Below are positions 1 to 33,117 of a stretch of 64,000 nt of DNA, piece by piece. The position numbers were made by a program, and so were the translations under genes. Source of the stretch: Eukaryota sp. GEM-RC1 (Eukaryota); the NCBI GenBank assembly GCA_040285855.1, contig JAUFOQ010000010.1:992001-1056000 (forward strand). The letters run 5' to 3'. The notes beneath the pieces are model-generated. The model had not been told where the DNA came from and did no database searches. It saw only the letters and a program-made list of their open reading frames with translations. How positions within the stretch are numbered: the first letter of the stretch is position 1; each line of letters opens with the position of its first letter.

Positions 1-543
1 GCAATTGCTGAAGCTTTGAAGGTGAATTCTTCAGTTTCTACGATCAATCTACATAGCAACTCAATTGGTCCTGAAGGCGCTACTGCAATTGCTGAAGCTT
101 TGAAGGTGAATTCTTCAGTTTCTACGATTTATCTATCTAATAACTCAATTGGTCCTGAAGGCGCTATTGCAATTGCTGAAGCTTTGAAGGTGAATTCTTC
201 AGTTTCTACGATTTATCTATCTAATAACTCAATTGGTCCTGAAGGCGCTATTGCAATTGCTGAAGCTTTGAAGGTGAATTCTTCAGTTTCTACGATTTAT
301 CTATCTAATAACTCAATTGGTCCTGAAGGTGCTATTGCAATTGCTGAAGCTTTGAAGGTGAATTCTTCAGTTTCTACGATTTATCTACATAGCAACTCAA
401 TTGGTCCTGAAGGTGCTATTGCAATTGCTGAAGCTTTGAAGGTGAATTCTTCAGTTTCTACGATTTATCTATCTAATAACTCAATTAACAGTCAAACACA
501 ACAATCATTAAAATCACTGCACAAGAATAGAATTCGTTTCTAA
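1..543 (+). CDS. LRR cassette 1 (5'-partial, >=6 modules)
   Basis: 28-aa repeats xIxLxxNSIGPEGAIAIAEALKVNSSVS, cap NSQTQQSLKSLHKNRIRF*; expression unproven. Confidence 0.6.
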   Translation, partial: AIAEALKVNSSVSTINLHSNSIGPEGATAIAEALKVNSSVSTIYLSNNSIGPEGAIAIAEALKVNSSVSTIYLSNNSIGPEGAIAIAEALKVNSSVSTIYLSNNSIGPEGAIAIAEALKVNSSVSTIYLHSNSIGPEGAIAIAEALKVNSSVSTIYLSNNSINSQTQQSLKSLHKNRIRF

Positions 544-1093
544 AGATATTTTCCTCTGATATAAAGATCACCCCATTATAAGTTACACATGAACAAATAT
601 CAAAGCAGGTTAGCAGTTGATCTTACACAGATTGATTTTCAGTTTTACCCGGTAATTAAGATTCGTCATATCGAAAAGTTCATTTGCTATTGTTTTCAAC
701 AACACCACGTATTAATTGGTATCTGGAAATGATGTAAAATTATTCTTTTGTTTTGAAATATTTCGAATCACCGACACAATGTCTCGTTATTAACACGGTT
801 GTATTTTTTCTCAAAAAACAGCTTAATTGTCGTTGAGTTGAGTGAGGCTTTGATTATTCTCAGTGATTTATAAGATGTACAGTATCCTTTTGTATCTATT
901 CCATAGATATTTTAGTCATGGTAATTTATTAAATATTGGTCAAAATTAGGTTGTTCGTTAGATTCTGTTTTAGTGATCTGTGATTGAATTGGAAATCTGG
1001 TCACACAATTGTCTTAACATACAAAGTAGGTTTTTGTTTATCTTAAATTGAGTTTATTATCTAACATTATCTAAGCTTCTTTTTACTGGATAT

Positions 1094-1540
1094 GTGTTCT
1101 ATGAACCGGCTAGAATTTCCGATTTCTATCTACATTACAACTCAAGTGGTCCTGAAGGCGCTATTGCAATTGCTGAAGCTTTGAAGGTGAATTCTTCAGT
1201 TTCTACGATCAATCTACATAGCAACTCAATTGGTCCTGAAGGCGCTACTGCAATTGCTGAAGCTTTGAAGGTGAATTCTTCAGTTTCTACGATCAATCTA
1301 CATAGCAACTCAATTGGTCCTGAAGGCGCTATTGCAATTGCTGAAGCTTTGAAGGTGAATTCTTCAGTTTCTACGATTTATCTATCTAATAACTCAATTG
1401 GTCCTGAAGGTGCTATTGCAATTGCTGAAGCTTTGAAGGTGAATTCTTCAGTTTCTACGATTTATCTATCTAATAACTCAATTAACAGTCAAACACAACA
1501 ATCATTAAAATCACTGCACAAGAATAGAATTCGTTTCTAA
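1094..1540 (+). CDS. LRR cassette 2 (4 modules, no in-frame ATG)
   Basis: ORF track starts at GTG; in-frame TGA at 1049-1051 and no ATG in between. Confidence 0.6.
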   Translation: MFYEPARISDFYLHYNSSGPEGAIAIAEALKVNSSVSTINLHSNSIGPEGATAIAEALKVNSSVSTINLHSNSIGPEGAIAIAEALKVNSSVSTIYLSNNSIGPEGAIAIAEALKVNSSVSTIYLSNNSINSQTQQSLKSLHKNRIRF

Positions 1541-2453: not shown

Positions 2454-3003
2454 AGATATTTTCCTCTGATATAAAGATCACCCCATTATAAGTTACACAT
2501 GAACAAATATCAAAGCAGGTTAGCAGTTGATCTTACACAGATTGATTTTCAGTTTTACCCGGTAATTAAGATTCGTCATATCGAAAAGTTCATTTGCTAT
2601 TGTTTTCAACAACACCACGTATTAATTGGTATCTGGAAATGATGTAAAATCATTCTTTTGTTTTGAAATATTTCGAATCACCGACACAATGTCTCGTTAT
2701 TAACACGGTTGTATTTTTTCTCAAAAAACAGCTTAATTGTCGTTGAGTTGAGTGAGGCTTTGATTATTCTCAGTGATTTATAAGATGTACAGTATCCTTT
2801 TGTATCTATTCCATAGATATTTTAGTCATGGTAATTTATTAAATATTGGTCAAAATTAGGTTGTTCGTTAGATTCTGTTTTAGTGATCTGTGATTTAATT
2901 GGAAATCTGGTCACACAATTGTCTTAACATACAAAGTAGGTTTTTGTTTATCTTAAATTGAGTTTATTATCTAACATTATCTAAGCTTCTTTTTACTGGA
3001 TAT

Positions 3004-3618
3004 GTGTTCTATGAACCGGCTAGAATTTCCGATTTCTATCTACATTACAACTCAAGTGGTCCTGAAGGCGCTACTGCAATTGCTGAAGCTTTGAAGGTGA
3101 ATTCTTCAGTTTCTACGATCAATCTAGGTAACAACTCAATTGGTCCTGAAGGCGCTACTGCAATTGCTGAAGCTTTGAAGGTGAATTCTTCAGTTTCTAC
3201 GATCAATCTACATAGCAACTCAATTGGTCCTGAAGGTGCTATTGCAATTGCTGAAGCTTTGAAGGTGAATTCTTCAGTTTCTACGATTTATCTATATAAC
3301 AACTCAATTGGTCCTGAAGGTGCTATTGCAATTGCTGAAGCTTTGAAGGTGAATTCGTCTGTTTCTACGATTGGTCTAGGTAACAACTCAATTGGTCCTG
3401 AAGGTGCTATTGCAATTGCTGAAGCTTTGAAGGTGAATTCGTCTGTTTCTACGATTGGTCTAGGTAACAACTCAATTGGTCCTGAAGATGCTATTGCAAT
3501 TGCTGAAGCTTTGAAGGTGAATTCTTCAGTTTCTACGATTTATCTATCTAATAACTCAATTAACAGTCAAACACAACAATCATTAAAATCACTGCACAAG
3601 AATAGAATTCGTTTCTAA
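3004..3618 (+). CDS. LRR cassette 4 (6 modules)
   Basis: Same leader, module and cap structure. Confidence 0.6.
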   Translation: MFYEPARISDFYLHYNSSGPEGATAIAEALKVNSSVSTINLGNNSIGPEGATAIAEALKVNSSVSTINLHSNSIGPEGAIAIAEALKVNSSVSTIYLYNNSIGPEGAIAIAEALKVNSSVSTIGLGNNSIGPEGAIAIAEALKVNSSVSTIGLGNNSIGPEDAIAIAEALKVNSSVSTIYLSNNSINSQTQQSLKSLHKNRIRF

Positions 3619-4168
3619 AGATATTTTCCTCTGATATAAAGATCACCCCATTATAAGTTACACATGAACAAATATCAAAGCAGGTTAGCAGTTGATCTTA
3701 CACAGATTGATTTTCAGTTTTACCCGGTAATTAAGATTCGTCATATCGAAAAGTTCATTTGCTATTGTTTTCAACAACACCACGTATTAATTGGTATCTG
3801 GAAATGATGTAAAATTATTCTTTTGTTTTGAAATATTTCGAATCACCGACACAATGTCTCGTTATTAACACGGTTGTATTTTTTCTCAAAAAACAGCTTA
3901 ATTGTCGTTGAGTTGAGTGAGGCTTTGATTATTCTCAGTGATTTATAAGATGTACAGTATCCTTTTGTATCTATTCCATAGATATTTTAGTCATGGTAAT
4001 TTATTAAATATTGGTCAAAATTAGGTTGTTCGTTAGATTCTGTTTTAGTGATCTGTGATTTAATTGGAAATCTGGTCACACAATTGTCTTAACATACAAA
4101 GTAGGTTTTTGTTTATCTTAAATTGAGTTTATTATCTAACATTATCTAAGCTTCTTTTTACTGGATAT

Positions 4169-4867
4169 GTGTTCTATGAACCGGCTAGAATTTCCGATTT
4201 CTATCTACATTACAACTCAAGTGGTCCTGAAGGCGCTACTGCAATTGCTGAAGCTTTGAAGGTGAATTCTTCAGTTTCTACGATCAATCTAGGTAACAAC
4301 TCAATTGGTCCTGAAGGCGCTATTGCAATTGCTGAAGCTTTGAAGGTGAATTCTTTAGTTTCTACGATCAATCTATATATCAACTCAATTGGTCCTGAAG
4401 GCGCTATTGCAATTGCTGAAGCTTTGAAGGTGAATTCTTCAGTTTCTACGATTTATCTATATAACAACTCAATTGGTCCTGAAGGTGCTATTGCAATTGC
4501 TGAAGCTTTGAAGGTGAATTCGTCTGTTTCTACGATTGGTCTAGGTAACAACTCAATTGGTCCTGAAGGCGCTATTGCAATTGCTGAAGCTTTGAAGGTG
4601 AATTCTTCAGTTTCTACGATTTATCTATATAACAACTCAATTGGTCCTGAAGGTGCTATTGCAATTGCTGAAGCTTTGAAGGTGAATTCGTCTGTTTCTA
4701 CGATTGGTCTAGGTAACAACTCAATTGGTCCTGAAGGTGCTATTGCAATTGCTGAAGCTTTGAAGGTGAATTCTTCAGTTTCTACGATTTATCTATCTAA
4801 TAACTCAATTAACAGTCAAACACAACAATCATTAAAATCACTGCACAAGAATAGAATTCGTTTCTAA
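4169..4867 (+). CDS. LRR cassette 5 (7 modules)
   Basis: Same leader, module and cap structure. Confidence 0.6.
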   Translation: MFYEPARISDFYLHYNSSGPEGATAIAEALKVNSSVSTINLGNNSIGPEGAIAIAEALKVNSLVSTINLYINSIGPEGAIAIAEALKVNSSVSTIYLYNNSIGPEGAIAIAEALKVNSSVSTIGLGNNSIGPEGAIAIAEALKVNSSVSTIYLYNNSIGPEGAIAIAEALKVNSSVSTIGLGNNSIGPEGAIAIAEALKVNSSVSTIYLSNNSINSQTQQSLKSLHKNRIRF

Positions 4868-5417
4868 AGATATTTTCCTCTGATATAAAGATCACCCCAT
4901 TATAAGTTACACATGAACAAATATCAAAGCAGGTTAGCAGTTGATCTTACACAGATTGATTTTCAGTTTTACCCGGTAATTAAGATTCGTCATATCGAAA
5001 AGTTCATTTGCTATTGTTTTCAACAACACCACGTATTAATTGGTATCTGGAAATGATGTAAAATTATTCTTTTGTTTTGAAATATTTCGAATCACCGACA
5101 CAATGTCTCGTTATTAACACGGTTGTATTTTTTCTCAAAAAACAGCTTAATTGTCGTTGAGTTGAGTGAGGCTTTGATTATTCTCAGTGATTTATAAGAT
5201 GTACAGTATCCTTTTGTATCTATTCCATAGATATTTTAGTCATGGTAATTTATTAAATATTGGTCAAAATTAGGTTGTTCGTTAGATTCTGTTTTAGTGA
5301 TCTGTGATTTAATTGGAAATCTGGTCACACAATTGTCTTAACATACAAAGTAGGTTTTTGTTTATCTTAAATTGAGTTTATTATCTAACATTATCTAAGC
5401 TTCTTTTTACTGGATAT

Positions 5418-5780
5418 GTGTTCTATGAACCGGCTAGAATTTCCGATTTCTATCTACATTACAACTCAAGTGGTCCTGAAGGCGCTACTGCAATTGCTGA
5501 AGCTTTGAAGGTGAATTCTTCAGTTTCTACGATCAATCTAGGTAACAACTCAATTGGTCCTGAAGGCGCTATTGCAATTGCTGAAGCTTTGAAGGTGAAT
5601 TCTTCAGTTTCTACGATCAATCTACGTAACAACTCAATTGGTCCTGAAGGTGCTATTGCAATTGCTGAAGCTTTGAAGGTGAATTCTTCAGTTTCTACGA
5701 TTTATCTACATAGCAACTCAATTAACAGTCAAACACAACAGTCGTTAAAATCACTGCACAAGAATAGAATTAGTTTCTAA
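5418..5780 (+). CDS. LRR cassette 6 (3 modules)
   Basis: Same structure; cap ends RISF. Confidence 0.6.
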   Translation: MFYEPARISDFYLHYNSSGPEGATAIAEALKVNSSVSTINLGNNSIGPEGAIAIAEALKVNSSVSTINLRNNSIGPEGAIAIAEALKVNSSVSTIYLHSNSINSQTQQSLKSLHKNRISF

Positions 5781-6331
5781 AGATATTTTCCTCTGATATA
5801 AAGATCACCCCATGATAAGTCACACATGAACAAATATCAATGCGGTTTAGCAGTCGATCATACACAGATTGATTTTCAGTTTTACCCGGTAATTAAGACT
5901 CGTCATATCGAAAAGTTCATTTGCTATTGTTTTCAACAACACCACGTATTAATTGGTATCTGGAAATGATGTAACATTATACTATATGTTTCGAAATACT
6001 TCGAATCACCGACACATTGTCTCGTCATAAACACGGTTGTATTTTTTCTCAAAAAACAGCTTAATTGTCCTTGAGTTGAGTGATGCTTTGATTATTCTCA
6101 GTGATTAATAAGATGTACAGTATCCTTTTGTATCTATTCCATAGATATTTTAGTCATGGTAATTTATTAAATATTGGTCAAAATTAGGTTGTTCGTTAGT
6201 TTCTGTTTTAGTGATCTGTGATTTAATTGGAAATCTTGTCACACAATTGTCTTAACATACAAAGTAGGTTTTTGTTTATCTTAAATTGAGTTTATTATCT
6301 AACATTATCTAAGCTTCTGTTTACTGGATAT

Positions 6332-6694
6332 GTGTTCTATGAACCGGCTAGAATTTCCGATTTCTATCTACATTACAACTCAATTGGTAAAGAAGGCGCT
6401 ATTGCAATTGCTGAAGCTTTGAAGGTGAATTCGTCTGTTTCTACGATTTATCTACATATCAACTCAATTGGTAATGAAGGCGCTATTGCAATTGCTGAAG
6501 CTTTGAAGGTGAATTCTTCAGTTTCTACGATCAATCTACATAGCAACTCAATTGGTCCTGAAGGTGCTATTGCAATTGCCGAAGCTTTGAAGGTGAATTC
6601 TTCAGTTTCTACGATTTATCTACATAGCAACTCAATTAACAGTCAAACACAACAGTCGTTAAAATCACTGCACAAGAATAGAATTAGTTTCTAA
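6332..6694 (+). CDS. LRR cassette 7 (3 modules)
   Basis: Same structure; first cassette with the IGKEG leader type. Confidence 0.6.
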   Translation: MFYEPARISDFYLHYNSIGKEGAIAIAEALKVNSSVSTIYLHINSIGNEGAIAIAEALKVNSSVSTINLHSNSIGPEGAIAIAEALKVNSSVSTIYLHSNSINSQTQQSLKSLHKNRISF

Positions 6695-7245
6695 AGATAT
6701 TTTCCTCTGATATAAAGATCACCCCATGATAAGTCACACATGAACAAAAATCAATGCGGTTTAGCAGTCGATCATACACAGATTGATTTTCAGTTTTACC
6801 CGGTAATTAAGACTCGTCATATCGAAAAGTTCATTTGCTATTGTTTTCAACAACACCACGTATTAATTGGTATCTGAAAATGATGTAACATTATACTATA
6901 TGTTTCGAAATACTTCGAATCACCGACACACTGTCTCGTCATAAACACGGTTGTATTTTTTCTCAAAAAACAGCTTAATTGTCCTTGAGTTGAGTGATGC
7001 TTTGATTATTCTCAGTGATTTATAAGATGTACAGTATCCTTTTGTATCTATTCCATAGATATTTTCGTCATGGTAATTTATTAAATATTGGTCAAAATTA
7101 GGTTGTTCGTTAGTTTCTGTTTTAGTGATCTGTGATTTAATTGGAAATCTTGTCACACAATTGTCTTAACATACAAAGTAGGTTTTTGTTTATCTTAAAT
7201 TGAGTTTATTATCTAACATTATCTAAGCTTCTGTTTACTGGATAT

Positions 7246-7608
7246 GTGTTCTATGAACCGGCTAGAATTTCCGATTTCTATCTACATTACAACTCAATTG
7301 GTAAAGAAGGCACTATTGCAATTGCTGAAGCTTTGAAGGTGAATTCGTCTGTTTCTACGATTTATCTACATATCAACTCAATTGGTAATGAAGGCGCTAT
7401 TGCAATTGCTGAAGCTTTGAAGGTGAATTCTTCAGTTTCTCAGATCGATCTACATAGCAACTCAATTGGTCCTGAAGGTGCTATTGCAATTGCTGAAGCT
7501 TTGAAGGTGAATTCTTCAGTTTCTACGATTTATCTATCTAATTACTCAATTAACAGTCAAACACAACAGTCATTAAAATCACTGCATAAGAATAGACTTC
7601 GTTTCTAA
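7246..7608 (+). CDS. LRR cassette 8 (3 modules)
   Basis: Same structure; cap ends RLRF. Confidence 0.6.
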   Translation: MFYEPARISDFYLHYNSIGKEGTIAIAEALKVNSSVSTIYLHINSIGNEGAIAIAEALKVNSSVSQIDLHSNSIGPEGAIAIAEALKVNSSVSTIYLSNYSINSQTQQSLKSLHKNRLRF

Positions 7609-8159
7609 AGATATTTTCCTCTGATATAAAGATCACCCCATTATAAGTCACACATGAACAAATATCAAAGCAGGTTAGCAGTTGATCATACACAGATTGA
7701 TTTTCAGTTTTACCCGGTAATTAAGATTCGTCATATCGAAAAGTTCATTTGCTATTGTTTTCAACAACAACACGTATTAATTGGTATCTGGAAATGATGT
7801 AACATTATACTATATGTTTCGAAATATTTCGAATCACCGACACATTGTCTCGTCATAAACACGGTTGTATTTTTTCTCAAAAAACAGCTTAATTGTCCTT
7901 GAGTTGAGTGATGCTTTGATTATTCTCAGTGATTTATAAGATGTACAGTATCCTTTTGTATCTATTCCATAGATATTTTAGTCATGGTAATTTATTAAAT
8001 ATTGGTCAAAATTAGGTTGTTCGTTAGTTTCTGTTTTAGTGATCTGTGATTTAATTGGAAATCTTGTCACACAATTGTCTTAACATACAAAGCAGGTTTT
8101 TGTTTATCTTAAATTGAGTTTATTATCTAACATTATCTAAGCTTCTGTTTACTGGATAT

Positions 8160-8942
8160 GTGTTCTATGAACCGGCTAGAATTTCCGATTTCTATCTACA
8201 TTACAACTCAATTGGTAAAGAAGGCGCTATTGCAATTGCTGAAGCTTTGAAGGTGAATTCGTCTGTTTCTACGATTGGTCTAGGTAACAACTCAATTGGT
8301 CCTGAAGGCGCTACTGCAATTGCTGAAGCTTTGAAGGTGAATTCGTTTGTTTCTTCGATTTATCTATATAACAACTCAATTGGTCCTGAAGGCGCTATTG
8401 CAATTGCTGAAGCTTTAAAGGTGAATTCTTCAGTTTCTCAGATCGATCTACGTAACAACTCAATTGGTCCTGAAGGCGCTATTGCAATTGCTGAAGCTTT
8501 AAAGGTGAATTCTTCAGTTTCTCAGACCGATCTACGTAACAACTCAATTGGTAATGATGGCGCTATTGCAATTGCTGAAGCTTTGAAGGTGAATTCTTCA
8601 GTTTCTACGATTTATCTACATATCAACTCAATTGGTAATGAAGGCGCTATTGCAATTGCTGAAGCTTTGAAGGTGAATTCTTCAGTTTCTCAGATCGATC
8701 TACATAGCAACTCAATTGGTCCTGAAGGTGCTATTGCAATTGCTGAAGCTTTGAAGGTGAATTCTTCAGTTTCTACGATCAATCTATATTACAACTCAAT
8801 TGGTCCTGAAGGTGCTATTGCAATTGCTGAAGCTTTAAAGGTGAATTCTTCAGTTTCTACGATTTATCTATCTAATTACTCAATTAACAGTCAAACACAA
8901 CAGTCATTAAAATCACTGCATAAGAATAGACTTCGTTTCTAA
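8160..8942 (+). CDS. LRR cassette 9 (8 modules)
   Basis: Translation identical to cassette 13. Confidence 0.6.
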   Translation: MFYEPARISDFYLHYNSIGKEGAIAIAEALKVNSSVSTIGLGNNSIGPEGATAIAEALKVNSFVSSIYLYNNSIGPEGAIAIAEALKVNSSVSQIDLRNNSIGPEGAIAIAEALKVNSSVSQTDLRNNSIGNDGAIAIAEALKVNSSVSTIYLHINSIGNEGAIAIAEALKVNSSVSQIDLHSNSIGPEGAIAIAEALKVNSSVSTINLYYNSIGPEGAIAIAEALKVNSSVSTIYLSNYSINSQTQQSLKSLHKNRLRF

Positions 8943-9493
8943 AGATATTTTCCTCTGATATAAAGATCACCCCATTATAAGTCACACATGAACAAATATC
9001 AAAGCAGGTTAGCAGTTGATCATACACAGATTGATTTTCAGTTTTACCCGGTAATTAAGATTCGTCATATCGAAAAGTTCATTTGCTATTGTTTTCAACA
9101 ACACCACGTATTAATTGGTATCTGGGAATGATGTAACATTATTCTTTTCGTTTTGAAATATTTCGAATCACCGACACAATGTCTCGTTATTAACACGGTT
9201 GTTTTTTCTCTCAAAAAACAGCTTAATTGTCGTTGAGTTGAGTGATGCTTTGATTATTCTCAGTGATTTATAAGATGTACAGTATCCTTTTGTATGTGTT
9301 CCAAAGATATTTTAGTCATGGTAATTTATTAAATATTGGTCAAAATTAGGTTGTTCGTTAGTTTCTGTTTTAGTGATCTGTGATTTAATTGGAAATCTTG
9401 TCACACAATTGTCTTAACATACAAAGTAGGTTTTTGTTTATCTTAAATTGAGTTTATTATCTAACATTATCTAAGCTTCTGTTTACTGGAGAT

Positions 9494-9856
9494 GTGTTCT
9501 ATGAACCGGCTAGAATTTCCGATTTCTATCTACATTACAACTCAATTGGTAAAGAAGGCGCTATTGCAATTGCTGAAGCTTTGAAGGTGAATTCGTCTGT
9601 TTCTACGATTGGTCTAGGTAACAACTCAATTGGTCCTGAAGGCGCTACTGCAATTGCTGAAGCTTTGAAGGTGAATTCTTCAGTTTCTACGATCAATCTA
9701 CATAGCAACTCAATTGGTCCTGAAGGTGCTATTGCAATTGCTGAAGCTTTGAAGGTGAATTCTTCAGTTTCTACGATTTATCTACATAACAACTCAATTA
9801 ACAGTCAAACACAACAGTCATTAAAATCACTGCATAAGAATAGACTTCGTTTCTAA
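9494..9856 (+). CDS. LRR cassette 10 (3 modules)
   Basis: Same structure; leader SNP GGAGAT. Confidence 0.6.
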   Translation: MFYEPARISDFYLHYNSIGKEGAIAIAEALKVNSSVSTIGLGNNSIGPEGATAIAEALKVNSSVSTINLHSNSIGPEGAIAIAEALKVNSSVSTIYLHNNSINSQTQQSLKSLHKNRLRF

Positions 9857-10407
9857 AGATATTTTCCTCTGATATAAAGATCACCCCATTATAAGTCACA
9901 CATGAACAAATATCAATGCGGTTTAGCAGTTGTTCATACACAGATTGATTTTCAGTTTTACCCGGTAATTAAGACTCGTCATATCGAAAAGTTCATTTGC
10001 TATTGTTTTCAACAACACCACGTATTAATTGGTATCTGGAAATGATGTAACATTATACTATATGTTTCGAAATATTTCGAATCACCGACACATTGTCTCG
10101 TCATAAACACGGTTGTATTTTTTCTCAAAAAACAGCTTAATTGTCCTTGAGTTGAGTGATGCTTTGATTATTCTCAGTGATTTATAAGATGTACAGTATC
10201 CTTTTGTATCTATTCCATAGATATTTTAGTCATGGTAATTTCTTAAATATTGGTCAAAATTAGGTTGTTCGTTAGTTTCTGTTTTAGTGATCTGTGATTT
10301 AATTGGAAATCTTGTCACACAATTGTCTTAACATACAAAGCAGGTTTTTGTTTATCTTAAATTGAGTTTATTATCTAACATTATCTAAGCTTCTGTTTAC
10401 TGGATAT

Positions 10408-19620: not shown

Positions 19621-20299
19621 AGATATTTTCCTCTGATATAAAGATCACCCCATTATAAGTTACACATGAACAAATTTCAAAGCAGGTTAGCAGTTGATCT
19701 TACACAGATTGATTTTCAGTTTTACCCGGTAATTAAGATTCGTCATATCGAAAAGTTCATTTGCTATTGTTTTCAACAACACCACGTATTAATTGGTATC
19801 TGGAAATGATGTAACATTATTCTTTTTGTTTTGAAATATTTCGAATCACCGACACAATGTGTCGTTATTAACACGGTTGTATTTTTTCTCAAAAAACAGC
19901 TTAATTCTCGTTGAGTTGAGTGATGCTTTGATTATTCTCAGTGATTTATAAGATGTACAGTATCCTTTTGTATCTATTCCATAGATATTTTAGTCATGGT
20001 AATTTATTAAATATTGGTCAAAATTAGGTTGTTCGTTAGATTCTGTTTTAGTGATCTGTGATTTAATTGGAAATCTTGTCACACAATTGTCTTAACATAC
20101 AAAGTAGGTTTTTGTTTATCTTAAATTGAGTTTATTATCTAACATTATCTAAGCTTCTCTTTACTGGATATGTGTTCTATGAACCGGCTAGAATTTCCGA
20201 TTTCTATCTACATTACAACTCAATTGGTAATGAAGGCGCTACTGCAATTGCTGAAGCGTTGAAGGTGAATTCGTTTGTTTCTACGATTGGTCTAGGTAA

Positions 20300-20420
20300 T
20301 GTTAGCACAGCAAGTGTTAACACGTGTTCTAGTAGTGAACTGTAGTATTATTTTACTTAGATTATTCTCTCCCCTATAAAGGTACCGTCCTTTTCACTTT
20401 CAGCCTTAAACAAGGCATCA
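20300..20420 (+). repeat. 5' LTR (121 bp)
   Basis: TGTTAGCACAG...AAGGCATCA; identical by eye to 26341-26461; contains CTATAAA. Confidence 0.97.
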
Positions 20421-20463
20421 ATAGCTATTGGCCGTACACTAAGGCCTATCTAACCTAATCTGT

Positions 20464-21765
20464 ATGTCAACCAGACCCCAATCTTCACTTCCAGCATCAC
20501 ACCTTCTTGCTGATCAGGTACGCTTCGTAGCACCGAAGCTGTCCTCCCTCTCCACGAATGCCGTCGCCCGCTTCGTCCAGGAAGTCTCTCACTTCCTCCA
20601 GGCCTCCGAGCCTGACCAATCCCAAAGTATTCCTTTGACAGAACCAACTGTGTTCCCTTCCGTCTCCGCCTCCATCCCTTCAGCCGCTGAACGCTTAGCT
20701 GAAGTCGAACAGATGATCCATGCCGCCTTAAAAGAATCCCACCTTGAAGGTTTTGACCCTGAAACCTTTGCCGCCTACTGGTCCGCCGCCAAGAAAGTCA
20801 CAATCGCCGCCAACGACTCCCCTTCTCCTAAACCCTCTTCAGGAACCTCCATGCCCAGGTTTCTCCAAGATGATGCGGATGCTCTAAGACGCCACTTAAA
20901 GACCTCTAACTTATCTCACTCCTCTTCCTTCCCTCATCAACTTGATGACTGGAATGGCCCTTCGTTCTTCGATGACCCTCCTGTCCCTGAAGGCTTCCAT
21001 CGCTTTATCCTCCCAAACATAATCAGCCTAATTCGTATTATGTGTCCAACCGCTCTTTCTAGCCAGGAAAACCTGTGGACTTACCTCCTATCCACCATAG
21101 CCGCCAAAGACGCCTCAGAAGCCAGAAGATTGCTGAACTCACTCTCAATGAAAACGCCAGGCCGAGAACCACTTACATTCTACATCCTCGACCTCCAGAA
21201 AGCTGCCCAGAGATGCAAGAACTTCCTGAACATCTCCAGGCCGAAACCGCTAATGGAAAGTTTCATCCAAGGCCTCAAGCCCTACGCTTTAAAAAGCAAA
21301 TTGATGGATGAGTTCAAGATGAACATCATCCAGGATATCGATTCACTAATATCCAGAACGATCGCGCTCAACGAAACTATAACTCATGAAGAAACGAACC
21401 CCAGACTCCGTAATGCTCAAAGAAGAAGTGATTTTAACTCTAACTCCATCTTTAGAACCAGAACTCCATATCCAAATTCCAACCTCCGAAACAAAGAACC
21501 AGCCGGCGAAAGAAAAGCTGCTCTTTCTGTAAGAAAGACGGCCACGTTATCGAAGATTGCTTCGATAAGTCGTGTAAAAAGTCGAAACATTATGATCCAT
21601 CAGCTCCACAAACGAAGAAGCCGTACTCAAATCCGAGGCTTCCAAGACCAACATTTGGAAACGCTAAAAGATCAACTAGAAGCTCTAAAAACAATTTTGT
21701 CGCTTCCAGAGAGCAATGCTCTGAAAGTCCTTACTCTACCACTATCTCAGATGACGAACCCATAG
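20464..21765 (+). CDS. gag: Gag-like ORF; the CCHC zinc knuckle lies in the -1 frame from 21519
   Basis: ATG just after the LTR; FIQGLKP motif; TGC TCT TTC TGT AAG AAA GAC GGC CAC GTT ATC GAA GAT TGC = CSFCKKDGHVIEDC at 21519-21560. Confidence 0.8.
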   Translation: MSTRPQSSLPASHLLADQVRFVAPKLSSLSTNAVARFVQEVSHFLQASEPDQSQSIPLTEPTVFPSVSASIPSAAERLAEVEQMIHAALKESHLEGFDPETFAAYWSAAKKVTIAANDSPSPKPSSGTSMPRFLQDDADALRRHLKTSNLSHSSSFPHQLDDWNGPSFFDDPPVPEGFHRFILPNIISLIRIMCPTALSSQENLWTYLLSTIAAKDASEARRLLNSLSMKTPGREPLTFYILDLQKAAQRCKNFLNISRPKPLMESFIQGLKPYALKSKLMDEFKMNIIQDIDSLISRTIALNETITHEETNPRLRNAQRRSDFNSNSIFRTRTPYPNSNLRNKEPAGERKAALSVRKTATLSKIASISRVKSRNIMIHQLHKRRSRTQIRGFQDQHLETLKDQLEALKTILSLPESNALKVLTLPLSQMTNP

Positions 21766-21858
21766 AGTTCGAGCTAGAACTCCCAAAATTTCTATCAAAC
21801 ACCTTCCTTTTGACAAATCCAACAACGTCAACGCCCAAAGCCTCTGCCGAAACAATGG

Positions 21859-24800
21859 ATGATGAGTGTTCCGCTGGAATTAAGCTCTTCCGTAAAGGAA
21901 TTGAGCCCAATAACAGGATCGGGTTTCGACCCTTTTCTACCAGTGCGAGATACGCCACAACGGGATGGTGACTCCAAAGTTAACGCAGTGGTCAAAGCCG
22001 AAGCCAAGTCGAATCAAGGACCTTCCAAGTTACTATCTCTCAAAGTCCTTATAAATAACTCTCCTTTCGAAGCACTGATCGACAGCGCTTGTGAAACCTC
22101 TTGCTTCTCCGAGGACATCGCGAAAAAAGCCGGATGCTCAATTGCCGCCAGCAGATTCAAGTTCACACTAGCAAATGGTACCAACATCCAATCCCCTGGA
22201 ACTGCCAACTGCATACTGAGCTTTGAATTTGACCGTATCCTCTCTCCGTTGGTACACCTGAAATGCCAGATTCCAATTATACCAGGAGTAAACCAATTCC
22301 TAATTGGATGTGACTTGCTGTCAAGCCTCGGCCTACTAAAAGAAAACTCCCTGATGATCAACTTGAACAAGGAACATTCGAAGATCACAGGAGCTGAAGC
22401 CACGCTGGACCACCTAATGGTCGACACACCTAGGAAAGGCCTCGTCGCTTCAACGTCCACAACTTTAGACGTATCAGAAAGTAGAATCGAGCTTCCCAAA
22501 GAAACCGAAGAAAAATTGCTGAAAATTCTAAACAAACACAAAGACGTGTTCGGAAAACCCTATCCTGATGGCATAAAATGTAAGCCAATGACTATCCCGT
22601 TTTACAACGAGGGCACAACCTGCAAGAAAGCCCCCAGAAACCTAAATCCTACTAAATTGGGGATCGCCAACGAGATCTTTGATGACCTCATCGAAGACGG
22701 ATTCGCCGAAGAAACCTCGACTGAGTCCAAATTTAGCTCTCCAATCGTCTTGGTAATCTATCCTGACGGTAAGAAACCCAGATTAACAGGGAGACTACTC
22801 AGGAACTGGAGGCGTGAACGCTTCCACCAAGCCAATTGAAGCCCACCTACCAAAGATATCAGACGTATCTATCTTCCTCTCAAATGCCAACTTCATTTGC
22901 ACACTAGACCTTCCGAAAGCATTTTGGCAAGTCCCACTAGACCGAGCTGATTACCAGAAAACTACACTAAGCATCCCAGGCCGTTCTATATTCTTCAAAA
23001 GAGCCGCCTTCGGACTAAAGAACGTCCCTGCGTTCTTCCAGAACTTGATGCAAGACATCTTCTCCATGCCTAATGTCTTTATTTACATGGACGATGTAAT
23101 CATCGCTGCTTGCACAGAAGAAGAACTGCTTTCCACGTTAGATGCCATACTAACGAAAGCAGTAGAACATAGAGTCCGCTTCGCCCTCCGAAAATGTGCA
23201 TTCCTGACCTCAGAAAGCGCCATAAAGATCCTTGGAGCAATTTTCCACAAAAGAAAAGATCTATAGACCCAGACAGAGTCAAATCCATCATCAAGCTGCC
23301 TATTCCCTCAACGATAGGCGAGCTGCGCTCCTTTAACGGCTCAATTAACTATATCCGAGACTGGATACCTCACCTGTCGAACTGCCTTCAACCTTTAACG
23401 GCCCTAACTAAAAAAGACGAGTCAGATCGCCGATCAGTTAAATCCAAATGGACAAGCTCGCACACGAACTGCTTCCTAACCATCAAGAATCTAATTTGTA
23501 ACGCCTGCAATCTAGCTCTCCCCGACGCAGACGCAAAAATTGTAATCTCAACAGACGCCTCTGATAAAGCTATCAGCGGAGTAGTTTGGAAGAAGCTTGA
23601 CAAGACCCCTACGACCTCTCCGCTAGAAGAACAAAAATTAGAACCAATCAGTTTTTTCTCGAAGACCTTGACGAATAGCCAAATGAACTGGCCAATAATC
23701 CAGAAGGAACTCTTCGCGATAATTTGCACCCTGAACCAGCCCGCCATGGCCAACTTCTTGATGACTCGGCAGCTAACGATTTTCTGCGATCACAAGAACA
23801 TCGTTTACCTGATTAACCAGCCAGAACGAAATCGGATCGTAACCCGCTGGATTCCCCTTCTATCTAACTTCTCCTTCGAAATCATCCACGTCGAAGGTCC
23901 AAACAACGTATTCGCCGACCTCCTTTCACGTCTCACGCCCGCTAACCCCAGTTTAGAATCAGAATTACCTGAAACCTCAACATGCTTTAGCTTACTTTCA
24001 GTAGAACTCTACGACACTGAATACTACTTTGACGAAACCCCAACAAAAACCGAATGCCCCAAGTGTGGAGAACGCATGCCCTACTTAACCATGCCCGTAC
24101 TTCGCATGCAGAAACTGCCTCAACAAACTAGAACCCCATGAAGTCTATAACGATGATGAACGCAGAGCCCTGCTTCACTTGTACCCGAAAGAAGACACGC
24201 CTATCAAAGACTACTGCGGCATATTCCAGCTAGACAAAGCAGGTCCTCGGAAATACATTGAACGCAGAGACGACCATATCAAGGAATTATGCTTCCGCTT
24301 CGTAAAGCACAAAGGTCTCATCAGAAGCCTAGAAAAGAAGAACTCTTCACTAAGGAAACTAGTAGAACCTCCTGCCAAAATCAAAATAATTGAACCAGAA
24401 TCGAAAATTCCATGTGCCCACTGCAATCACGGAACCACCGACTTGGAACTATGTGCCAGCCACCACCAAGTAACAACATATCAAGAACGACTGGTCTGCC
24501 ACAGCTGCAAGAAATATACAACCGATCAGTTGCTGACAGAAGCCAAAGAAAAACTAAAGAAAAGAAAAACTAAAAACTCCCACGAGAAGCTCCTATCTAA
24601 CGATGGTACAGGCCCCCTCGTATGCTATTCATCCACAGATGAATCCCCTTACGATTCAAAAGAATCAGAAGACTCCGACTCTGATACCCCCTTCACCCAG
24701 AAATGCTTCGCACTTCGCTGGTCCGGCCAGCCTCCTAAGAAACCAATCAGAATCATTCCAGAATGGTTCAAAGAAGAACTAGAAAAAACCCGCAAAGAAA

Positions 24801-26290
24801 AGGAAGTCATCGACATAAGCTCCGATGAACATGAAGAAGACCCCTTGCCCTCAATTACCTACTCAGTCAGAACCGTCGAAACTCAAGACACAGCCTGGCT
24901 CGACACCTTGCGCACCCAACAGCAACTAGAACTAAAAGACTCCAGTGACAGATGCTCCTGGGACGCTGTAGCTCAAATGTTTGTCACCCCTGACAACAAA
25001 ATCCTCGTTCCTGAATCTCTAAGGAAAGAGGTAATGTGGAACTTCCACGGATATGCTCACTGTGGTCACCCACCCTACTGGCAATGTCTCAAAGACATCA
25101 AAAACAGCTGCTACTCTTGGCCGACACTAGAAACTGATTTAAAAAATCACATCGACTGTTGCCACTCATGTCAGAAGACGGCCCCAGCCCCCAAGACGAA
25201 AGCCGAATCCACCGGATCCCTGTTTGCTATGAAACCGTTCGGCAATATCCACGCCGACACTATAGGACCCTTACCCACTGACAACCTCGGAAACAGATAC
25301 GTGCTTGTATTCGTAGACGCCTTTACGAGATACACCATCTTATGTCCCTCAGACAAAATCTCCGCAACAAACTCAGCATACTGTCTTATCAACTCAGTAT
25401 GCGCCAACTTCGGCATACCCGACATGATCCACTCAGATAACGGACCCGAGTTTTGTAACGCCACCTTTAAAGCATTATGTGCCTTTCTGAACATAACTAA
25501 CTCCTTCTCGCTCCCTCACCACCATCAAAGTAATGGCCTGGTTGAGCGAAGAAATCGAGAAATCAACCAAACACTGAAGAGATTCCTCCTAGACCTGAAC
25601 GACTTTCAAAACTGGTCGACCCATCTACCTATGGTGCAGTTGATGATCAACAACCAGCGTCACTCTGTAACCCGATGCACCCCATGGGAACTGATGTTTG
25701 GATCCCCAATCGATCCTAGGAAACCTGCTTCAGACCTGCTAGAGAAACTGACCGCCAAGCCACTTAGAGAAACAGGCAACGTGTTTGTCGATGCCCTCGC
25801 TGCCAGAACTTCCTACTTAAAAGAAAAGTGGGAAGAAGCAGCCAAAAACCAGCAAAGCCATCTGGACAAACTTAGACCCAACTCAAAACCGGTCAAGAAC
25901 CCCTTTGTCGTTGGTGACCTCGTACTTCGAAAGAACGACCAACCTCAGCGCCTGCATGGCTCATGGTTAGGCCCTTTTCAAGTGCTGGAAAGCTCTCCCG
26001 ACTCCACGAAAGTTAAAATTCTAAACTTCGTCACAGGCAACGAACTCACAACCTCCAGCTTGCTCCTTCGCCTATTCATGGCCCACTCATCCAACAAGGA
26101 GTACCTGACCGCCATCGCCGCTATGGACCAACAAGAGTCTATACTTGTGAAGGTGCATGACATCGATCACAGATCTAACAGAGCCCATGTAGAATGGATA
26201 GACGGCTCTACATCTATGGAACCTCTCGATGAAATCCGCAAGACCACCGCATGGTCCAAGGCCAAGCATCTCCACGATGATCCCCTTTGA
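21859..26290 (+). CDS. pol: Pol polyprotein (protease, RT, RNase H, Cys-rich insert, integrase, chromodomain-like tail) in four ORF pieces joined by single-base shifts
   Basis: ALIDSAC (protease); LDLPKAFWQ, AFGLKN, YMDD (RT); TDASD, QKELFAI, DHKNI (RNase H); H..H..C..C, HADTIG, SDNGPEF, VERRN (integrase); WLGPF; VEWIDGSTSMEP. Confidence 0.93.
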
Positions 26291-26325
26291 AAACACTCGC
26301 TGCCCTTAAAGCCATGAGAGGCTTC

Positions 26326-26337
26326 AAGGAAGAAGAG
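26326..26337 (+). promoter_or_regulatory. Polypurine tract
   Basis: AAGGAAGAAGAG, 3 nt upstream of the 3' LTR. Confidence 0.75.
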
Positions 26338-26340
26338 CAT

Positions 26341-26461
26341 TGTTAGCACAGCAAGTGTTAACACGTGTTCTAGTAGTGAACTGTAGTATTATTTTACTTA
26401 GATTATTCTCTCCCCTATAAAGGTACCGTCCTTTTCACTTTCAGCCTTAAACAAGGCATCA
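26341..26461 (+). repeat. 3' LTR (121 bp)
   Basis: Identical to the 5' LTR; followed by the GTAA TSD. Confidence 0.97.
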
Positions 26462-26986
26462 GTAACAACTCAATTGGTCCTGAAGGCGCTACTGCAATTG
26501 CTGAAGCTTTGAAGGTGAATTCGTCTGTTTCTTCGATTTATCTATATAACAACTCAATTGGTCCTGAAGGCGCTATTGCAATTGCTGAAGCTTTAAAGGT
26601 GAATTCTTCAGTTTCTCAGATCGATCTACGTAACAACTCAATTGGTCCTGAAGGCGCTATTGCAATTGCTGAAGCTTTAAAGGTGAATTCTTCAGTTTCT
26701 CAGGTCGATCTATATTACAACTCAATTGGTCCTGAAGGCGCTATTGCAATTGCTGAGGCTTTGAAGGTGAATTCTTCAGTTTCTCAGATCGATCTACGTA
26801 ACAACTCAATTGGTAATGAAGGCGCTATTGCAATTGCTGAAGCTTTAAAGGTGAATTCTTTAGTTTCTACGATTTATCTATCTAATAACTCAATTAACAG
26901 TCAAACACAACAGTCATTAAAATCACTGCATAAGAATAGACTTCGTTTCTATAGATATTTTCCTCTGATATAAAGATCACCCCATT

Positions 26987-27852
26987 CAGGGACTGTCAAA
27001 AATATATTGCACTTTTGCAATAATTGCAATATTGAGTATTGTGTATTGCAATACTGTATTGCAGCCTCATTTTGTATTGCAATATATTGCAATAATTTCG
27101 ATTTTGAACAATAATTTTAAACCATTGCTTTTTCTGTTGCTTGAAAGGAATCTGGCAACATAGTACATGTAGTTTTTGGTTTGTGTACAATTGGAAGTCC
27201 TTACTACTACTCACATAATATTAGAGAACAAAAACTATAAAATATGATATTTTGGGTTAGTCTACATTGTACGTGGTAAGCTGGTGTCTTCAAATTAAAG
27301 TATTTTTCTTGTGTAAGAGTCCTTACTACTAGTAGTATCTGTCTAGTTCTGGCTACAGGTGTATATCTGATATCATTCGACACATCATCTTACATGACGC
27401 TTTCCTATAGTGCCACTCGAGAACAGATGAGGAAAGCCCACTTTATTCCTATATCCCAGGACTCAACATGGACTCAACATGGACTCAAATCAATGGAATT
27501 CTTTGATAGTAAATAACGTGAGCAGTGATGATGATGAAGAAATTGCTGAACGGCCCGGACCTGTTTTCTATGTTCAAAATGTCTGTTTCTGATCGAAGAC
27601 TTGCCAATCAACAATTTACTTTAAACACAGAGTTTTGGGACATTAGTTTGGTTCGTAAGATGGTTAATCAGAAACTAGTGAACTTAGATGATGCCTAATG
27701 ATGAGCTTAAGAGTTATTGATGGAATTAATACAATAAATAGTCTACTCAACAATATTTATATTGCTTCCAATTATTGCAATATATTGCACTATTGCAATA
27801 CTGTATTGCAAATCTTTTGACCCCGCAATATATTGCAATATATTTTTGACAG
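26987..27852. mobile_element. Non-autonomous TIR element (MITE-like) inserted in the last spacer
   Basis: Perfect 19-bp inverted repeat CTGTCAAAAATATATTGCA (26993-27011) / TGCAATATATTTTTGACAG (27834-27852); subterminal TATTGCAATA repeats; interrupts spacer CCCATT|ataagt|CACACATG. Confidence 0.88.
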
Positions 27853-30800
27853 CACACATGAACAAATATCAAAGCAGGTTAGCAGTTGATCATACACAGA
27901 TTGGTTTTCAGTTTTACCCGGTAATTAAGATTCGTCATATCGAAAAGTTCATTTGCTATTGTTTTCAACAACACCACGTATTAATTGGTATCTGGAAATG
28001 ATGTAACATTATACTATATGTTTCGAAATATATCGAATCATCGACACAATGTCTCGTTATTAACACGGTTGTTTTTTCTCTCAAAAAACAGCTTAATTGT
28101 CCTTGAGTTGAGTGATGCTTTGATTATTCTCAGTGATATGTAAGATGTACAGGATTCTTTTGTATGTGTTCCATAGATAATTTAGTCATGGTAATTTATT
28201 AAATATTGGTCAAAATTAGGTTGTTCGTTAGATTCTGTTTTAGTGATCTGTAATTTAATTGGAAATCTTGTCACACAATTGTCTTAACATACTCCCAGTA
28301 AAGTCTGCCCAAAGGCTTGTACTAATGGAAGGGTCGACTGTAGCTGGTGTGTTTTAGTTATTATTTTTACAAAAGCAATTACTGTAATTCACTGTATTGA
28401 TCAAAAAACCCCGTTTCTTTACTAATATTACACGTTATTTAAAACGACTGATTTGAAAATCTGACTGTTGAGCATGACTCCTCCCTAAATAAATTCTGTA
28501 ACTACACATGTTTCAAATGTCTTACTATACCGATGTAGACGTCCTCTCAAATTCTGCCACCAGCGACATCGAAGTCCATTAATTTGGTGGAAGAGAATTA
28601 AAAACACATATCCAACACTTACTTGAATCATCTTTGATTATTGTTCAATACAGGCATCATCAGTACCATTGGGAAAGAATCTTTTCCCGTGCTGGGTAAA
28701 TTGTATCCGAAAATAGAGCATCTCTCAAATGTGACACAGTTCAAGTTTTGGTTTTACTCAACTCATGGACAAAACTTGGATTTATCGCTAATGTTGGACA
28801 TTTCCTCGATGATAACAATTGATGTTACTTTTTGACTAATAAATCTTAATAGAATTTTGTTTAAAAGGCCTTCCTTTTAGTAAACACACAAGATTCACTT
28901 CCACTTTACATTGGAAAATGTTTACATGACGTGCTTATCGATTTTCTCTTACTCATGTACTGTCCAAGACCACATACAATACCACTAACATTACTGCAGG
29001 AGCTTCATCACTGAACTCCTGCAATTGATAAAGAAGCCGCTTTACTACGTGTATTTGGTTTCGTGGTGGATTTTTTAGATTTCCAACTGTAGTTGTACTC
29101 TTAACTGTTGTTTTAGGTGTTGACAAGCAACAACGTTTGTTTTAGGAATTGATAAATCTATTAACATTACTGCAGAGACTTGACATAAACAATCAGACCT
29201 CCGAAAGTTTCCTCCAGGATGACGCAGTACATACCAAACAAGCCCATCTTCAAACATTGATGGAAGTTCCTTGGGCTCTACGGAGTCTGGCGGCAACCCT
29301 GGTCCTTTGGAGTCATCCACTGGACCAGAACTGGAAGATCCTCTTGGAATCAAGAAAGTCCTGGAGAAATACGGAGTTCCAGTTTTCTCTTCAGATACCA
29401 CTAGTACTCTGGGAGACAATGTTGTGGGTATAACTACTTCTTCTGTAGTTCAGAGAACATCTTTGTCTTCTCCGGATGATTCCGATTCTTCCTTGTTAGT
29501 CAGTAGTTTATTAAATAAAGATAACGTTGATCCTTCAGTTCCTCTGTCTAGAGAGGTTGATATGAGGCAACTTCAAACAGTCCTGGCTCAGCAAAAGACC
29601 AGGGCAGAAGAAGCAGAACGACAGCTTCTGGAGGAACAAAAGAAAAAAACGTTGAACTTGGCCCCAATCCAACAACTTCTCATCAGTGAAAGAAAATGAC
29701 TAGAAACTTGCTGAAGACGAAGGACTAAAGAATTCTATATACTTTTGTTATTAAAGCCAATGTAAGACTCGAAAAAAGCCTTCTAACTTCTCTACAGCTG
29801 GAACTGCGTTAAAATAACTGAATGCGCATACATGAAGCAAGGTGTCTAATCACAGCTATTGATCTCTCTTGACAAGAGAACGTTACTGATGATTGTTAAA
29901 CGATGCTTACGAACATGGAGCAATAAGTACCCCACCATCACAACTTACCACGTACGTTTCAGTCAAAAAAGTGAGTTAATTGGTCCACGCTGAATGATAA
30001 AAAGATTGAACTACTTTGTGTACCCAACTTCATTTCAGAATCAAGCCAACAGTCTGATAAATATAACTAACCAAAACCAAACTCTGATTCCCTTCCTAGA
30101 CTACTAATGAAAAAACATGTGCTTCCACTTCACGACCAGGACCACCCTCCATGAGCAGCTCTTTCTTAGATCAGCTGTTGTTTTGATCTTTGATTGTTTT
30201 TAAAGGTTGCTCTTACCTTTCACCAACGACTGATCTAATTCGTGGAACTTCTTCTTCGTTCTCTTATACAGACTGTGGTTCTGTTTCTCTGTTTCCTTCT
30301 CTCTTAATTAATTTCCTGAAGCTGCAGCTCTGGATGTTTGGAAAAGCCTGCCATCGCATTAAACCGCTCTTGGAGCATTTCAGATGGCAGCTCAGTACAG
30401 TAACATTATATGTTCGTTCTTTGTTTGTACTTTCAGAAAATTGATTTTGTTGATTTGTTTGCTAGATATTCTAGGTTCACATTTACCCTCGTTTGTCTGT
30501 TTATCCTACTGTTTTTATTCTATGTTTTAGATATGGTTTTTGACCATAAAGACCCTTTGTTTAGTACTAAACTGGTTCGAGTCCATATGCAAATGTTGGA
30601 GTTGAGTCGTTGCCCATAGAGTGCGAGTGACGAGAGTTACTCTCACCACCGATCAAAAATTATTTAACAATGTGTAAATATAATAAAATGATGAAGATTT
30701 TGTGTGATGTAAAATCTATGTTAGTCAAGAAAATTAATGAACCAAAACTCAAAATCAAGAAAATCAAGATTTGGAAAGTAAAAAGCCCAAGATTTGTCCA

Positions 30801-33006: not shown

Positions 33007-33117
33007 ATCAACTTAAACGGAAAGTTATAATCTATCATTGAAACAAAACCCAATATAACTGGTTAACAATACCAAAATACAATATTGAGTACATTTATTC
33101 AGAGTTCTGAAGTCAGT

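Follow-up and report, generated by a model that had tools for sequence, protein, structure and literature searches.

The first 28 kb of the window, as we term the 64-kb stretch of DNA analysed here, consist of 18 head-to-tail copies of an LRR gene tail, all on the forward strand, and raise the question of how so many apparently start-less, open cassettes came to lie in a row and what, if anything, they do. The preliminary description of this DNA had viewed them as a library of interchangeable LRR C-termini for an expressed locus. Of that view, it holds that the cassettes are LRR tails truncated at the 5' end, with modules that are interchangeable and recombine, whereas the parent genes it named and its argument from open frames do not hold. 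We find it reasonably probable that the array is a truncated tail of TRIM-like LRR genes, which was multiplied by recent unequal crossing-over and is likely just a passive pool of variants.

The tandem array (1–28293, forward strand) is made up of units of 913–1676 nt, each comprising a leader, a variable number of 84-nt LRR modules, a cap with a stop codon, and a spacer of ~490 nt. Its right end falls within a spacer, and its left side is open at the window edge. The counts given earlier were reproduced, with 18 caps and 113 modules, the latter in 19 groups as cassette 18 is split; 17 leaders are present because the 5' end of cassette 1 (1–543, 6 modules seen) lies outside the window, and none of the 113 modules found within the 64-kb window is on the minus strand. 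The number of modules per cassette ranges from 3 to 12, with three in cassettes 3 (2049–2453), 6 (5376–5780), 7 (6290–6694), 8 (7204–7608) and 10 (9452–9856), four in cassette 2 (1052–1540), and six in cassette 4 (2962–3618). Seven modules are seen in cassettes 5 (4127–4867), 15 (16380–17120), 16 (17630–18370) and 17 (18880–19620), eight in cassettes 9 (8118–8942), 11 (10366–11189) and 13 (13375–14199), and twelve in cassettes 12 (11699–12865) and 14 (14710–15870), whereas cassette 18 (20130–26973) is divided into one plus five. Sixteen of the 18 cassettes are intact. The previously reported features were all recovered, namely, in the leaders, an in-frame TGA at 1049, GTG at 1094 and GGG in cassette 12; a 1-nt lesion, which is a frameshift near 10455 in cassette 11; and a transposable element splitting cassette 18. 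The last of these is a Ty3/gypsy-type LTR retrotransposon (20300–26461, forward strand) inserted within a module and encoding protease, RT, RNase H and integrase; its ~120-nt LTRs are identical across the 120 nt compared, it is flanked by a 4-nt target duplication, and its pol frame is interrupted at several places in the window sequence. Features that had gone unrecorded are the repetition of the spacer itself, an in-frame 6-nt insertion in one module of cassette 12, the loss of the stop codon of cassette 18, whose frame continues to 26973, and an 867-nt non-coding element with inverted ends (26987–27853) in the last spacer, 7 nt of which have been lost.

The spacers, exemplified by the first (544–1029), are non-coding, repeated in every unit and nearly identical among units (pi 0.029), and the 17 cap-spacer-leader stretches differ on average by 18.7 positions per 667 aligned columns. 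Given that spacers are repeated along with the cassettes, what has been arrayed in tandem, and recently, is the whole unit. Outside the array, no match to the spacer better than E 0.009 was found in the window. The spacers are also mosaic, with 55 of 435 informative site pairs being incompatible (Rm 5). Seven exact duplications of 796–1251 nt cross cassette and spacer alike, cassettes 16 and 17 are identical, and cassettes 9 and 13 are one base apart. Cassette 14 is a crossover chimera, its leader and first two modules being of the cassette 10 type and the rest of the cassette 12 type. Thus, whole units including their non-coding part recur head to tail, accompanied by higher-order duplications and recombinant units, as unequal crossing-over produces. 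The modules themselves are recombined at a finer scale (Rm 7 in 84 nt), with 15 combinations of left and right half-motifs.

The module and cap match a family of RING-B-box-LRR (TRIM-like) proteins that carry the label Eukaryota sp. GEM-RC1, with module identities of 0.83–0.92. This bears out the earlier expectation that full-length genes with the same module and cap exist, although these are not the ones that had been proposed. The N-domain genes at 31816, 33118 and 52872, which had been taken as the full genes of the cassettes, were rejected as parents since they end in a different cap and their modules are only 58–61% identical; the neighbouring N-domain and LRR genes at 31816–34814 and a third at 52854–54236, all on the forward strand, belong to one other family. 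Two of these three neighbouring "full genes" are out of frame here (at 33067/34146, and with the ATG at 52934 off the frame of the 52854 ORF). The same cap ends at least five full-length RING-B-box-LRR proteins, and Pfam RING and zf-B_box domains are found in P0096, P0100, P0116, P0206 and P0208. These parent proteins have a RING, two B-boxes, a linker and a variable C-terminal domain, and a crude heptad score for a possible coiled coil, computed without a control, has its best windows at residues ~160–290. Two other contigs together carry at least five full-length family genes, each of which repeats surface codes of its own. A RING-B-box head is absent from the window, the best tblastn match of the N-terminal halves having an E-value of 0.19. 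The tail of cassette 15 is predicted to form an RI/NOD2-type LRR solenoid (pLDDT 92.8), with neither a cysteine nor a hydrophobic segment. The parents likewise have RI-type LRRs and no terminal anchor, with no hydrophobic segment among the 60 C-terminal residues of P0096, and do not resemble surface antigens.

Variation in the modules, which differ on average at 7.3 positions per 84 nt (35 distinct DNA modules, n=93), is concentrated in codons 14, 16, 18 and 19. At these surface codons, whose choice was guided by the data and by the LRR motif, without a likelihood test, pN is 0.37 and pS 0.046 (pN/pS about 8), compared to 0.016 and 0.108 in the conserved frame of the module; the same four codons are the most variable in 41 modules of the family. 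The silent diversity of the modules is probably older than the units, because it exceeds that of the spacers (0.108 versus 0.029). The main argument of the preliminary description, that the module frames are open throughout, loses its force at this age. Among 11 rare module variants, a sample of little power that is also compatible with purifying selection, 8 are non-synonymous and 3 synonymous, where neutrality predicts 25–31% synonymous changes, and only about 0.3–0.4 stops are expected (P(no stop) 0.65–0.72). The leader variants are 4 non-synonymous to 3 synonymous. Open module frames therefore need no selection and are no more than is expected by chance in an array so young; as proof of selection they were set aside.

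These observations suggest a scenario in which the tail of the array was likely severed from the N-terminal half of the family by a rearrangement. A unit of leader and tail would have arisen once and then dispersed, and one of the dispersed copies would have expanded, with in-register crossovers within the 84-nt modules altering module number and generating chimeras; the frame would survive such crossovers because 84 = 3 x 28. The surface variation would have been selected in functional TRIM-LRR genes, whose products are predicted to be ubiquitin ligases that bind their targets through a variable end, and would then have entered the array through recombination. Since 16 codes and 15 half-motif combinations exceed the capacity of a three-module founder, the traffic between the array and other loci appears to be real. 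The array itself would be under little or no coding constraint, and a frameshift, an LTR element and a lost stop have been tolerated in it; the 16 intact cassettes, the well-folding tail and the candidate start and donor sites retained throughout the units (see below) weigh on the other side. Occasional unprogrammed exchange back to functional genes might occur, as proposed for the Podospora NWD pseudogenes.

The leader bears on two other explanations. It is homologous to the N-terminus of P0071 (score 94 against 23 +/- 3) and is likewise found at the start of five dispersed gene models of three modules and 143 aa in the P0071 cluster, which are automated AUGUSTUS annotations; a relationship to the TRIM linker as its decayed remnant found no support, 58–60 of 60 shuffles scoring as high. 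The example at 1030–1141 has no in-frame ATG, as had been stated, but the label "start-less" is not secure. A candidate first exon of 17 nt (875–891, forward strand) has an ATG and encodes the same first residues as the 143-aa models, which run into the leader; from its possible donor at 892 a predicted 222-nt intron would lead to an in-frame acceptor ending at 1113. A second candidate start (918–1075, forward strand) has an ATG followed by a predicted 155-nt GT-AG stretch joining the leader in frame. All 17 units retain both ATGs and donors and the corresponding sites, and seven in-frame single-intron models exist in total if no consensus filter is applied. Each unit could accordingly be a small expressed gene, with a spacer ATG spliced to the modules and yielding LRR-only proteins of 15–45 kDa, which might serve the TRIM-LRR ligases as partners or oppose them as decoys or competitors. 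The LRR fold is sound and GT-AG introns do occur in the window, but the two that were read are 31–32 nt long, far shorter than 155–222 nt; a strict in-frame model also arises in 40 of 100 shuffles and a loose one in 79; conservation of splice sites is expected at 3% divergence; and the acceptor apparently used by the 143-aa models, as deduced from the protein, leads into the TGA at 1049. Given also the automated origin of these models, we regard expression of the units as unlikely. A 50-nt intron at 1026–1075 with an upstream coding exon was discarded, as a stop closes the upstream frame. Far more improbable is a role of the units as alternative last exons, or as acceptors in trans-splicing, with a RING-B-box exon lying upstream of the window. 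AG acceptors are present in every leader, including a phase-2 one immediately ahead of the first module, and the units share one orientation and have their own stops; against this, the leader shows no homology to the TRIM linker and occurs at the head of dispersed solo models as well, no upstream exon is known, and 28 kb of skipped last exons receive no support from the 31-nt introns seen.

Closer to the original library view is a selected bank of silent donors from which directed segmental gene conversion would rewrite the LRR end in one or a few expressed TRIM-LRR genes. The contiguous start-less cassettes, 83–92% like the full genes as in vls, the concentration of variation at the four surface codons, and the sub-module mosaicism would all fit such a bank, as would P0099, which has 6 of its 7 codes in common with the array. 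However, the spacers were amplified together with the cassettes, the copies are redundant, and no constraint was detected on new variants. The array has only 16 distinct surface codes in 106 parsed modules, compared to 58 in the 20 family proteins listed; five of the 16 recur among these and the shared codes cover 17 of 96 modules, an overlap that is under-sampled as the proteins are cluster representatives from the matches listed. The four most abundant array-only codes, which account for 56 of the 106 modules, occur in none of the 20 family proteins listed. The full-length genes of the two other contigs, at least five in number, each share codes of 0–2 modules with the array and do not look like one expression site. 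The module library is thus small, redundant and of little overlap with full-length genes, and we consider directed conversion from a selected library rather doubtful; we hold just as improbable a tandem bank that feeds new surfaces into TRIM-like ligases by segmental conversion in a free-living anaerobic protist, which would give a single-celled eukaryote a vls/VLR-like means of diversifying intracellular immune receptors. Nothing found in the window or among the family proteins points to a programmed, one-way, single-site system. That copy number or order is in part an artefact of long-read assembly is hardly credible. Homopolymer single-base frameshifts in the duplicated genes of the window and in the young LTR element, as well as the identity of cassettes 16 and 17, would be consistent with it, but the units carry consistent, recombined haplotypes, the spacers beside the identical cassettes differ by 8–10 bases, and one module is interrupted by an insertion whose target duplication is clean.

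Returning to the array as a passive tail derivative, the closest parallel among known systems is the HNWD/NWD family of Podospora anserina, which includes het-d, het-e, het-r and the pseudogenes NWDp1-3 (PMC1805685, PMC2873952). It shares with the present locus near-identical intragenic repeats, variable repeat number and exchange within and between loci. Here, repeats are near-identical within and between loci (83–92% protein identity to other loci), and in both cases four binding-surface codons diversify, here with pN far above pS and in Podospora under diversifying selection. The repeats of the NWD pseudogenes also stay open, one of these having no start codon. The Podospora repeats are WD40 units on NACHT proteins as opposed to 28-aa RI-type LRRs on RING-B-box proteins, and its pseudogenes are described as single loci, whereas the tail here has been amplified to at least 18 tandem copies. 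Function and exchange have been demonstrated in Podospora and are putative here. TRIM E3 ligases are described in PMC5758549 as RING-B-box-coiled-coil proteins. The parent genes agree with them in having a RING, two B-boxes, a linker and a variable C-terminal domain, and differ in their LRR tail with high internal conservation, the array itself being devoid of the RING-B-box head; TRIM-like refers to domain architecture and implies no orthology to animal TRIMs.

Those VLR and vls features for which a test was possible are missing from the array. According to PMC11499132, the Borrelia vls locus similarly has contiguous cassettes about 90% like the intact gene, with variable segments and a conserved frame, but a single expression site adjoins that array and conversion is one-way, whereas several full-length genes on other contigs are found here; the present array further differs in its repeated spacers, its stop in each cassette and its want of surface-protein features. 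Lamprey VLRs (PMC3308329) also have LRR modules that vary on the concave face. They draw on diverse cassettes that number in the hundreds and flank a germline gene which is itself incomplete, with LRRNT/LRRCT caps, a stalk and deaminases, unlike the complete parent genes and the cysteine-free RI/NOD2-type repeats with 16 codes seen here. Nothing like an extracellular LRR receptor with Cys caps, a stalk and a membrane anchor is seen in cassette 15 or at the C-terminal end of P0096, and in place of hundreds of donor cassettes there are 35 distinct modules of 93 and 16 codes, counted in the window alone as the array continues beyond position 1. Other LRR systems of microbial eukaryotes and algae resemble the array in their young, shuffled repeats, for which unequal crossing-over and neighbouring retrotransposons have been invoked, but there each repeat is an exon, whereas the modules here are intron-less and contiguous.

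The RING-B-box-LRR family is apparently undescribed, lineage-restricted and hypervariable in its surface codons. The literature searched yielded no paper with both "Skoliomonas" and "LRR", the main text of the genome paper contains none of "LRR", "leucine" or "B-box", and its supplementary files that were searched gave no expression values for family genes. A look-up of sequencing runs for positions 1483–2235 came back empty, an outcome that carries no information about expression. Metagenome scans returned no exact match to a module motif and 87 pattern matches to P0096, none of which was confirmed. The genome probably belongs to an anaerobic protist, and the family members are candidate cell-autonomous immune receptors in a metamonad, with repeats shuffled like those of fungal NLRs. 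Were the array a selected donor bank, it would represent programmed receptor diversification outside vertebrates and parasites in a cultured organism; if not, it offers a clean example of open, start-less cassettes arising without a programmed system. Among the 150 best representatives, the three that carry this LRR are all labelled GEM-RC1, and related RING-B-box heads with other tails occur in two Skoliomonas-labelled proteomes. In the ESM Atlas, the best matches are B-box/RING clusters at 0.90–0.91, with B-box and LRR clusters at 0.86, a lead which suggests that the RING-B-box-LRR architecture is not unique. A similar duplication of the tail is seen in P0070, another annotated model.

In the first 28.3 kb of the window we counted 113 modules of 84 nt, together with 18 caps and 17 leaders; every one of these elements reads in the plus orientation. 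The recount confirms the 18 cassettes and about 113 modules of the preliminary description. The cassettes have 3–12 modules each, and the 93 complete 84-nt modules comprise 35 distinct DNA and 28 distinct protein sequences. The repeating unit is the entire cassette together with its spacer. Its non-coding part (pi 0.029; 46 variable sites in 488 columns of 17 copies) is mosaic, with 55 of 435 informative pairs of columns being incompatible and a minimum of at least 5 crossovers, which recurrent mutation may have inflated. Seven exact duplications of 796–1251 nt span cassette-spacer borders, cassettes 16 and 17 are identical, cassettes 9 and 13 are one base apart, and cassette 14 corresponds to the beginning of cassette 10 joined to the remainder of cassette 12. 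This conjunction of repeated and mosaic spacers, long exact duplications, twin cassettes and a chimera strongly suggests unequal crossing-over with breakpoints within modules.

The array carries a frameshift near 10455 and a Ty3/gypsy-type LTR retrotransposon inside a module at 20300–26461, recorded previously as a 1-nt lesion and a TE insertion; that list of damage was incomplete, and a 6-nt in-frame insertion in cassette 12, a lost stop codon in cassette 18 and an 867-nt element with inverted ends in the last spacer are now added. The retrotransposon has a 4-nt target duplication, and its identical LTRs (~120 nt each) suggest that it is very young. A long insert separates its RNase H and integrase, and its pol is broken across several frames, perhaps due to assembly errors. 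Given the homopolymer single-base frameshifts seen in duplicated genes and in the young LTR element of the window, some array lesions may also be assembly errors.

GEM-RC1 is a free-living anaerobic metamonad, named Skoliomonas sp. GEMRC in PMC11316075. A search with the last module and cap, extended to members of matching clusters, recovered at least five proteins combining RING, B-box, LRR and the array-type cap (P0096, P0100, P0116, P0206 and P0208), whose genes lie on contigs 2.14 and 2.82 Mb long; the window's protein is encoded on a 2.10-Mb contig. P0099 and P0068, two shorter models from a contig of 2.10 Mb, both start within the TRIM linker of the full-length family. The preliminary description had measured the cassettes against the neighbouring N-domain genes at 31816, 33118 and 52872, but the array modules are 0.83–0.92 identical to the family proteins as against 0.58–0.61 to these genes, whose ends are also unlike the array cap, thereby eliminating them as parents. 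No RING-B-box half was found in the 64-kb window. The array is a real, young tandem set of headless TRIM-LRR tails, and we favor, with moderate confidence, the view that it arose incidentally, through repeat-driven recombination within a gene family that is diversifying.

Heads related to those of the parents bear other tails in GEM-RC1- and TZLM1-RC-labelled proteins, and the array-type LRR occurs in 3 of the best 150 representatives, all three labelled GEM-RC1. In two proteomes labelled Skoliomonas the RING-B-box family (P0211–P0225, P0356, P0357) is expanded, and its members end in C-terminal domains of several unrelated kinds; one protein shows a weak phage tail collar match. P0067 combines array-type modules and cap with a non-TRIM N-terminus, suggesting that the LRR tail has moved between families. 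An Atlas hint (score 0.86) of B-box + LRR clusters outside GEM-RC1 is a lead only. Expression, E3 activity and an immune role for the TRIM-like family are putative. None of the papers searched mentions both Skoliomonas and LRR, and the four listed that bring together TRIM, B-box, leucine-rich repeat and protist do not, to judge by their titles, treat this RING-B-box-LRR family.

The predicted structure of one cassette is a regular solenoid (pLDDT 92.8) with the strand at module codons 14–16; the closest structure is the NOD2 LRR (TM 0.93–0.95), and sequence matches are RI-like. The exposed positions of an LRR strand are given by the LxxLxLxxN motif, by which we take codons 14, 16, 18 and 19 to be exposed. 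Variation centres on these codons, plus codon 24: across 93 modules pN/pS is 0.368/0.046 at the four codons and 0.016/0.108 in the rest of the frame, and 41 modules from 7 family proteins are most variable at the same positions. Silent diversity in the modules is nearly 4 times that of the spacers (0.108 versus 0.029), and hence most module variation is likely to be older than the units, or imported. Rare variants (those in at most 4 modules) number 8 nonsynonymous to 3 synonymous, with a neutral expectation of 25–31% synonymous, a weak test given 11 variants. The open frames, the main argument of the preliminary description, lose their force, since 2–4% of changes create a stop and none would be seen among 11 variants with a chance of 0.65–0.72.

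The modules are mosaic at a fine scale: 5 left and 8 right halves form 15 combinations, with at least 7 crossovers within the 84 nt. The 106 of 113 modules that could be parsed have 16 surface codes (residues at codons 14, 16, 18 and 19), exceeding the capacity of a three-module founder, so that there was exchange with other loci, in one direction or the other. The 20 family proteins selected from module and cap searches and cluster members have 58 codes in 96 modules, of which 5 codes, covering 17 of the 96, are common to the array; none of the 20 has any of the four codes that account for 56 of the 106 parsed modules of the array. The exception is P0099, with 6 of 7 codes in common, as could be expected of a recent parent or of a recipient. 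Thus, the proposed interchangeability of modules is borne out within the array, but overlap with the full genes recovered is small, and a dedicated donor library appears quite improbable.

The leader has a TGA at 1049 and lacks an in-frame ATG, so that the label "start-less" holds for the contiguous frame, though not beyond it. It bears no resemblance to the TRIM linker (58–60 of 60 shuffles scored equally high), and matches instead the N-terminus of P0071 (score 94 versus 23 ± 3 in 40 shuffles), whose cluster comprises 4 sequences under 5 accessions, each of 143 aa, on a 2.10-Mb contig. As judged from protein sequence, these automated models appear to splice the counterpart of the spacer ATG 875 to the leader, since their first residues are those encoded from ATG 875 and their continuation matches the leader. 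In the array copy of this path 12 extra bases bring the TGA into frame. Two further in-frame joins (ATG 875/donor 892/acceptor 1113, and ATG 918/acceptor 1075) are kept in 17 of 17 units, as would suit small spliced genes; however, shuffled sequence yielded a strict model in 40 of 100 cases and a loose one in 79 of 100, so these models are no evidence of expression, and we consider such genes unlikely.

The nearest described case to these headless tails is the Podospora NWD family, which resembles the array in surface-codon variation, repeat exchange and open repeats without a start. PMC1805685 and PMC2873952 describe four surface codons under diversifying selection, repeat exchange within and between loci, and pseudogenes whose repeats have stayed intact, one of which has no start codon. 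The likeness to lamprey VLRs and vls proposed earlier is not sustained by the features that could be compared: no testable VLR feature was found in the array and family, and the family lacks the surface-antigen feature of vls. In the LRR shuffling of Ectocarpus and Tetrahymena, every repeat is its own exon.

At least 66 proteins of this lineage, P0002–P0066 among them, make up a second LRR family with the unnamed N-domain, and about half of them are encoded on a single contig of 2.10 Mb. Among the 66 matches to the 31816 N-domain, one is the window's own protein and the 65 named homologues are all labelled Eukaryota sp. GEM-RC1, with none from outside this lineage. The member at 33067–34814 has a weak RRM_1 match (E 0.0007) ahead of the N-domain, and a decayed inverted copy of it lies at 39968–40573 (minus). 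A near-identical gene pair at 41824–43400 and 48181–49700 (minus) encodes an integrin-beta-type VWA domain, of interest because the host is a metamonad; both genes have one GT-AG intron of 31–32 nt. RVT_1 matches mark a second, decayed LTR-type pol at 37079–38935 and a non-LTR-type RT element at 54655–57129. Several long ORFs with hydrophobic stretches and no Pfam matches at 58680–63891 (minus) probably belong to one large multi-exon gene, or two, for membrane proteins.
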